This document shows positions 5,793 to 6,478 of a DNA stretch of 13,925 nucleotides, in pieces (within the stretch, counting starts at the first letter, position 1; each line of letters opens with the position of its first letter). This DNA comes from a virus (Duplodnaviria > Heunggongvirae > Uroviricota > Caudoviricetes): the IMG/VR virus record IMGVR_UViG_2684623077_000006; one strand, 5' to 3'. The position numbers and the translations under genes were made by a program. Under the pieces are notes generated by a model. The model was not told the origin of the DNA. It did no database searches and saw nothing but the letters and a program-made list of their open reading frames with translations.

Positions 5793-6071
5793 ATGCACAC
5801 TTCAGGGAAATTTAATAAATCACTCAAAAAACGCAGAGACAGAACAGAACCGAAATATCGCGCGTTAGACATGACAGAGCACGCTTTAAAGGTGGCAATC
5901 AGAACGATAGACCGCCACGCGGGGGAAGGATACGCGAAAGCACATCCCGAACTGATAAGCGCATTCATGACCACGACGGCGGCAAATTTTGCCACGCTGA
6001 CAGAGCGGGAGATTGCCGAAGCGGAACAGGTAACAACCATCAACGTTAAAACCGGAGAGGTGGAATCATGA
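5793..6071 (+). CDS. Hypothetical protein (92 aa)
   Basis: ORF with GAGGGGG upstream; stop overlaps the start of the SSB gene (ATGA). Confidence 0.5.
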   Translation: MHTSGKFNKSLKKRRDRTEPKYRALDMTEHALKVAIRTIDRHAGEGYAKAHPELISAFMTTTAANFATLTEREIAEAEQVTTINVKTGEVES

Positions 6072-6478
6072 CAGCACAGATAGCCGCTTACGGGCGGCTA
6101 GTGGACGACCCGCAGGTAAAACAGACCAGCAAGGGCACACCGATGACGCTGGCGCGTATGGCGGTATCGTTGCCATGTAGTCAGGCGCAGGATGGGCAGG
6201 CGACGTTATGGCTATCGGTCATCGCATTTGGTAAGCAGGCCGACTTCCTGGCTAAACATCAAAAAGGCGACGTTGCCAGCGTATCCGGCACGATGCAGGT
6301 CAGCCAGTGGACCGGACAGAACGGGGAAACGCGGCAGGGTTATCAGGTTATTGCAGACAGCGTAATCAGTGCCCGTGCGGCACGTCCTGGCGGGAACAGA
6401 CGCAAGACCACAGGCACACAGGGTAATCAGCCACCAGCGGGAGGCGATGACCCTTACGGTGATGATATTCCGTTCTGA
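6068..6478 (+). CDS. ssb: Single-stranded DNA-binding protein (136 aa)
   Basis: OB-fold-like N-terminal pattern (AAYGRLVDDPQVKQTSKGTPMTLARMAV...LWLSVIAFGKQADFLAKHQKGDVASVSGTMQVSQWTGQNGETRQGYQV) and the hallmark acidic C-terminal tip DDIPF after a Gly/Pro/Gln-rich linker. Confidence 0.75.
   Translation: MTAQIAAYGRLVDDPQVKQTSKGTPMTLARMAVSLPCSQAQDGQATLWLSVIAFGKQADFLAKHQKGDVASVSGTMQVSQWTGQNGETRQGYQVIADSVISARAARPGGNRRKTTGTQGNQPPAGGDDPYGDDIPF

Follow-up and report, generated by a model that had tools for sequence, protein, structure and literature searches.

Why would a phage satellite carry an ssb gene of its own, and what could the encoded protein do with a C-terminal tip that ends like that of the Escherichia coli protein? 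The question is raised by a small gene in a 13,925-nucleotide stretch of viral DNA (IMG/VR record IMGVR_UViG_2684623077_000006; the whole stretch is referred to below as the window). [quoted passage not shown]

The satellite and the genes around ssb

Judged by its gene content, the window is a capsid-forming PICI (cf-PICI). The set of features expected of this class (int, alpA, pri, ori, capsid, protease, portal, head-tail connectors, HNH, TerS, and TerL) is present, the genes are co-oriented and of the ∼14- to 15-kb class size, and there are no tail or lysis genes; the att sites lie outside the window. Further properties of the class, known from experiments (10.1101/2022.09.08.507074), are dependence on a helper phage for induction and the hijacking of tails. 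The placement of the gene in a phage satellite, as proposed previously, is confirmed by the gene order int-alpA-primase-ori-ssb-capsid-to-TerL. A near-identical gene order is annotated in two E. coli chromosomes (L001 and L002), between housekeeping genes. The closest islands in complete genomes show ∼92% identity to the window over 84 to 88% of its length, and relative to them the window is, by sequence comparison, a mosaic. The main features outside the ssb block are as follows.

1-1239: tyrosine integrase (int)
1562-1858: AlpA
2809-3013: C4 antisense RNA and a1b1 target (Rfam), with two Icd-like ORFs
3460-3759: DUF4222 protein
3756-5504, + strand: P4/D5-type primase-helicase (D5_N, DUF5906, Pox_D5; TIGR01613)
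5505-5792, no strand assigned: putative island ori, an iteron-rich gap with TCTACC/GGTAGA iterons in both orientations and an AT-rich centre
7236-13635: HK97-type capsid, protease, portal, head closure, connector, HNH, TerS, and TerL

The Rfam matches to the C4 antisense RNA (72 bits) and the a1b1 target (46.8 bits), at 2809-2858 and 2926-3013, are of the P1/P4 immunity-RNA type and are flanked by Icd-like frames (…FAARIRQG, ending at 2778, and …FVARIRQGG, at ∼3130-3250). In the form in which the program lists them, the long ORFs at 1870-2778 and 2771-3454 are unlikely to be real genes.

The gap that follows the primase-helicase gene contains 11 exact TCTACC/GGTAGA hexamers, 6 on the + strand and 5 on the − strand, which are often paired at a 9-bp spacing around the AT-rich centre at ∼5540-5575. 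Eleven of the 12 TCTACC copies in the whole 13.9-kb window fall within 5505-5792, and the relaxed pattern YCTACC is observed 18 times versus 6.8 expected, a count that none of 200 shuffles reached. By these repeats, the segment is likely to be the island ori, bound by the primase-helicase; in PICIs, the ori sits downstream of pri (PMC10111431). Immediately beyond it begins a block of four genes, in which ssb (6068-6478) is the second.

5793-6071, + strand: orf92, a member of phrog_1231 (unknown function)
6489-6746, + strand: PerC-family regulator directly 3′ of ssb (PF06069, 124 bits), annotated alike in L001 and L002
6737-6997, + strand: orf86, the final gene of the block, a member of phrog_1957 (function unknown)
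7004-7031, + strand: intrinsic-terminator-like hairpin with a 9-bp stem and a T7 run, which closes the orf92-ssb-perC-orf86 block before the capsid gene; the strong terminator is placed at 7004-7024

The orf92 product has no Pfam, NCBIfam, or PADLOC match, and its AF2 model is a small helical bundle of low confidence (mean pLDDT, 64). The family is narrow, being found in Escherichia, Shigella, and Citrobacter, with strong conservation of the C-terminal two-thirds. The roles of SSB partner and recombinase were both considered for orf92, which has no family match and a low-confidence helical model, and no function was assigned. In other PICIs, the same slot is occupied by an unrelated ORF of 126 to 150 aa (7212-7592 in L003 and 9555-10004 in L009), in neither case with a Pfam domain. 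A possible role for the orf92 product is that of a partner of the SSB or the ori that is particular to its module. Its stop codon (TGA) overlaps the start codon of ssb (ATGA), and from this overlap the two genes are probably translationally coupled. A promoter scan of the + strand of 5505-5792 found no sigma-70-like site; the block may be expressed by read-through from the primase gene or from a non-consensus, activator-dependent promoter. The PerC-family protein shows a weak resemblance to the ANR negative regulators (17 bits, below the cut-off), and a PICI-encoded PerC homologue has been reported as a repressor, rather than an activator, of LEE (PMC11773190). In several PICIs, a gene for a ProQ/FinO-family RNA chaperone lies between ssb and perC (10467-10883 in L009; also in L010 and L028-L030).

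Satellites often carry defence or counter-defence cargo. This general background and the divergence of the island SSB from the host SSB, both of them circumstantial, are what can be said for an anti-defence or decoy function, in which the island SSB would change, during induction, the response of host defence systems or of phage factors by which SSB-coated ssDNA is sensed or targeted. A PADLOC scan of ssb, orf92, perC, and orf86 produced no matches, and the position of ssb is conserved in the core replication module rather than in a variable accessory region, which makes such a function highly improbable.

Family, predicted fold, and relatives of the island SSB

The ssb gene extends from the ATG at 6068 to the TGA that ends at 6478, on the + strand, and codes for 136 aa (ORF list and sequence reading); its start codon can be considered fixed because every homologue opens with MTAQI…. 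The protein ends in …GGDDPYGDDIPF, with G-G-D-D-P-Y-G-D-D-I-P-F as the last residues, and the final five, DDIPF, are identical in the E. coli SSB (…D-F-D-D-D-I-P-F). Both the ORF and the tail agree with the earlier description of a compact SSB of 136 aa with an E. coli-type acidic tip. The gene and its parts are as follows.

6054-6063, + strand: Shine-Dalgarno-like GGAGAGGTGG, 5′ of the ssb ATG (sequence reading)
6068-6478, + strand: ssb coding sequence, 136 aa plus stop (PF00436, TIGR00621)
6068-6379, + strand: predicted OB-fold ssDNA-binding domain, aa 1-104 (AF2, Foldseek, dN/dS)
6380-6451, + strand: short linker, predicted to be disordered, aa 105-128, ARPGGNRRKTTGTQGNQPPAGGDD (pLDDT 55-65, alignment indels)
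6452-6475, + strand: acidic C-terminal tip PYGDDIPF, the SSB-Ct motif (sequence, subfamily conservation)

A profile search against the SSB family, the check that the earlier note had proposed, returned the Pfam SSB domain PF00436 with 62.5 bits (E value, 4.2e-17; curated gathering cut-off, 26). The NCBIfam model TIGR00621 (“ssb”), whose cut-off is 53.95, matched with 58 bits, and PHROG 44 (“single strand DNA binding protein”) with 8.5e-41, so that the proposed membership in the SSB family holds at the level of three profiles as well as of the OB fold predicted by AF2. A sequence search of the PDB yielded 26 matches, all of them SSBs, the best being those from Thermus, Deinococcus, and Thermotoga at ∼1e-11. 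In the AF2 model, for which 48 homologues served as input, the pLDDT is 93 to 98 across residues 1 to 100 and drops to 55 to 65 across residues 105 to 136, which is consistent with residues 105 to 136 forming a disordered tail. The model shows the defining elements of the OB fold, a barrel of five strands in which a helix lies between the third and the fourth (predicted strands 3-11, 16-19, 25-36, 44-54, 69-82, and 88-100; helix 55-62), and a Foldseek comparison with the PDB gave only bacterial SSB OB domains among the matches listed, with target TM scores of 0.65 to 0.83. On the strength of the profiles and the model, the product of ssb is a true SSB of the bacterial type, in which the OB fold is followed by a short linker, predicted to be disordered, and an acidic tip; binding of ssDNA and the oligomeric state of the island SSB are presumed.

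The E. coli chromosomal SSB (EcSSB; PDB 1EQQ/1EYG; PRK09010) has in common with the island SSB the PF00436 domain and the succession of OB fold, linker, and acidic tip. The OB domain of the island protein, however, is only 26% identical to that of EcSSB, its total length is 136 aa versus 178 aa, its linker comprises ∼24 aa with a basic RRK patch versus ∼60 aa, and its strand 2-3 loop is shorter. Three of the four DNA-stacking aromatic residues of EcSSB are retained (W54 as W48, F60 as F54, and W88 as W81) and are conserved in the subfamily, whereas the fourth, W40, corresponds to Cys37; the tetramer-interface residue His55 is replaced by Leu49. With these two replacements, an EcSSB-like mode of binding and oligomeric state become less certain for the island SSB. 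The scores against the enterobacterial chromosomal SSB model NF006533/PRK09010 (28.1 bits) and the F-plasmid-type SSB model NF010292/PRK13732 (25 bits) are far below the respective cut-offs of 260 and 265 bits, and these subfamily cut-offs rule out a copy of the host ssb or of an F-type plasmid ssb.

Host-identical last five residues on an OB domain this divergent, that is, a distinct protein with the same docking peptide, lend some appeal to a form of the second of the two earlier ideas in which the tip-bearing SSB would divert host SSB-interacting proteins (such as chi, PriA, RecQ, and ExoI) or ssDNA from the helper phage and thereby lower its replication, to the advantage of the island. Interference with helpers is indeed common among satellites (10.1101/2022.09.08.507074; PMC10111431). 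Such competition is nonetheless unlikely to be the main function, as ssb is always found within the replication module and not among interference or accessory genes, the tips have drifted in relatives from other genera, and purifying selection acts on the OB fold, as would be expected for a working DNA binder.

The SSBs of plasmids, such as the leading-region Ssb of F and the SSB of the Sodalis plasmid pSG2, are likewise mobile-element proteins that are additional to the host copy. F Ssb complements E. coli ssb mutants. The pSG2 protein is 55% identical to the island SSB and belongs to the same subfamily. F Ssb is encoded in a conjugative leading region, whereas the island ssb is linked to a primase/ori module. 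By analogy with the SSBs of conjugative leading regions, the island protein could protect or process entering, circularising, or integrating island DNA, or dampen the SOS response. The pSG2 homologue adjoins Mob relaxase genes, and phage SSB genes often neighbour recombinases (PMC5779228), both of which would fit such an establishment or recombination role. Its probability is nevertheless low: PICI DNA, being packaged in capsids of the phage type, should enter as dsDNA, there is no Erf/RecT/Sak recombinase, the upstream orf92 product has only 92 aa and no family match, and the F-plasmid-type SSB model failed, as described above.

The phage SSBs of PHROG 44 are strongly matched at the profile level. 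No relative of the island SSB in a deposited phage exceeds 35% identity, and the 68 phage matches include no enterobacterial phage. Recent uptake from a helper phage is ruled out by the lack of any phage relative above this level; by its sequence relationships, the island SSB represents a satellite/integrative-element lineage and not a recent loan from a helper phage.

Distribution of the ssb cassette and selection on the gene

The DNA of this ssb is present in 1,769 of 5,426 complete E. coli genomes, at up to 6 copies per genome, and is annotated as “single-stranded DNA-binding protein” on every one among the matches listed; its cluster at 99% identity (P0001) has 1,200 members, with SSB as the PGAP name. 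PMC10111431 (2023) includes “Primase, SSB and DUF5906” of Gram-negative PICIs in the Replication category and reports their co-localisation with mapped origins. The gene was therefore already known, by this categorisation and by routine annotation, and the novelty claimed for it in the earlier note was overstated.

A wider scan of loci, built from a tighter alignment (A2) with one genome per species, recovered 33 loci with a relative of ssb in many Enterobacterales genera. A primase-helicase homologue is encoded shortly upstream in 25 of them and perC downstream in 13, and only 2 carry the cf-PICI capsid module. The order helicase/primase-gap-small ORF-ssb recurs in the cf-PICIs L001, L002, and L016, in the capsid-plus-TerS PICIs L006 (whose structural genes are limited to capsid, decoration, and TerS) and L043, in a PICI with a protease-capsid fusion (L007), in a classical PICI without structural genes (L009), and in a Klebsiella element (L003). 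L006 (NZ_CP072858.1, 3038-15187) is a pri-ori-orf-ssb PICI that interrupts a lambda-like prophage within its major capsid gene, a helper-embedded configuration of the kind described in PMC10111431.

The small-ORF/ssb(/perC) cassette is paired with at least four types of helicase/primase: in addition to the D5/P4 type, it is found with a RepA-family helicase in L043 (O157:H7 Z1831, 7152-9411), with a Zn-ribbon primase-helicase in the Klebsiella element (L003, 4436-8035), and with a VapE primase on the Enterobacter plasmid pEho8-4 (L005, 3810-7075). This mixing argues for a generic, rather than helicase-specific, replisome role. The cassette travels with the replication modules of integrative elements and is not specific to cf-PICIs. 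In a metagenomic relative with 46% identity, the gene is part of an int-HTH_17-ssb-Toprim primase-AAA_25 helicase element. In comparison with the SSBs of other Gram-negative PICIs (among them helper-embedded PICIs, PMC10111431, and cf-PICIs of the EcCIEDL933 type, 10.1101/2022.09.08.507074), which occupy the same slot in the order pri-ori-small ORF-ssb-(perC), the window copy is the variant with the shortest linker, and nothing essential differs. Assemblies that carry the labels Chryseobacterium, “Candidatus Paceibacterota,” and Vicinamibacterales (L018, L026, and L034-L036) also contain relatives; in the Chryseobacterium and “Candidatus Paceibacterota” assemblies, the neighbouring genes are typical of enterobacterial PICIs, so that contamination or mis-binning is likely.

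Against six copies from E. coli and related bacteria, the OB domain shows dN/dS values of 0.12 to 0.20 (about 0.15) at dS values of up to 1.5, which indicates that ssb is under purifying selection. Full-length homologues span 136 to 153 aa. Indels in alignment A2 alter the length of the linker, so that the proteins have 136, 140/141, or 149 aa, but leave the tip in place. Of 120 close homologues, 67 end in GDDIPF and 25 in GDNIPF; the strict pattern [DEN]x[ILVM]P[FLWI] ends 108 of the 117 that fall within the full-length range of 120 to 180 aa. Among the 108 full-length representatives of clusters at 50% identity, 70 still have an acidic tip that ends in a hydrophobic residue. Its consensus reads [F/Y]-D-D-[E/D]-[I/L]-P-F, with D132 and F136 at least 90% conserved in the subfamily. 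Tips in other genera have drifted (PPFDDEAPF, PPYDDDF, and QHEDDF), and exact identity with the host tip is therefore a property of the Escherichia copies and not of the whole clade.

These patterns bear on whether ssb might be a redundant passenger that hitch-hikes without a selective contribution, the host SSB being sufficient. Truncated copies do occur: the one on pEho8-4 has 104 aa, being without the tail and the last part of the OB fold, and fragmentary copies are found beside IS elements. Moreover, the only genes named as essential for the induction and transfer of PICIs are int, alpA, and pri (PMC10111431), and ssb may thus be dispensable. A dN/dS of ∼0.15 at high dS, the persistence of the tip despite linker indels, and the retention of the gene across genera and PICI types nonetheless render a purely passive presence very unlikely.

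One copy differs from the window gene unevenly along its length. In the SB0258h1 copy (L002, 9159-9569), dS relative to the window ssb is 0.85 in the OB part and only 0.18 in the tail part, a contrast that points to a recombination breakpoint inside ssb and to a mosaic gene.

Proposed role in island replication

Of the two functional ideas in the earlier note, support of island replication fits better than competition for host partners, because ssb follows the primase/helicase gene and the iteron-rich ori and this position is kept across many PICI types. Within the autonomous replication module of the PICI, the island SSB is probably the component that coats ssDNA. Upon induction by a helper phage, the island primase-helicase would open the iteron-rich ori just upstream of the ssb block, and the island SSB, expressed from the orf92-ssb-perC-orf86 block, would coat the displaced strands. 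Its DDIPF tip could then dock SSB-interacting proteins of the host, such as the Pol III chi subunit, PriA, and partners of the RecQ/ExoI type, so that the host replisome would copy the island independently of the SSB supply of the host, on which SOS damage and helper replication make demands as well. Both the recruitment of partners and the contribution to island replication are what we infer from the tip and the setting of the gene. Competition with the helper, a part in establishment, an anti-defence function, and a passenger gene are all less consistent than the replication role with the fixed position of ssb in the replication module and the purifying selection on its OB fold.

The searchable literature yielded no functional experiments on the SSB of any PICI or other satellite, and no accessible study was found that addressed a requirement for a PICI SSB in the replication or transfer of the island or in interference with the helper. 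The accessible cf-PICI papers do not mention ssb; among them, the cf-PICI preprint (10.1101/2022.09.08.507074) describes mutants in the packaging module only, in which replication was unaffected. The window carries a genuine SSB gene in the replication module of a PICI, but an ordinary one, and the finding in itself, a correctly recognised and routinely annotated gene in a well-described class of satellites, is of little weight. Its interest lies in the broader pattern that an SSB gene of their own, next to the ori and encoding a partner-docking tip like that of the host, is an almost constant feature of Enterobacterales PICIs.

A more far-reaching, if doubtful, possibility is that the island SSB is more than a spare copy: it would carry a mimic of the host tip on a divergent OB core, assemble into tetramers of its own, and channel host replisome and repair partners privately to island DNA. 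If this were the case, the helper phage would be starved of these partners, or island replication would escape factors that target the host SSB, and the SSB would be an interference or hijacking determinant of Gram-negative PICIs.
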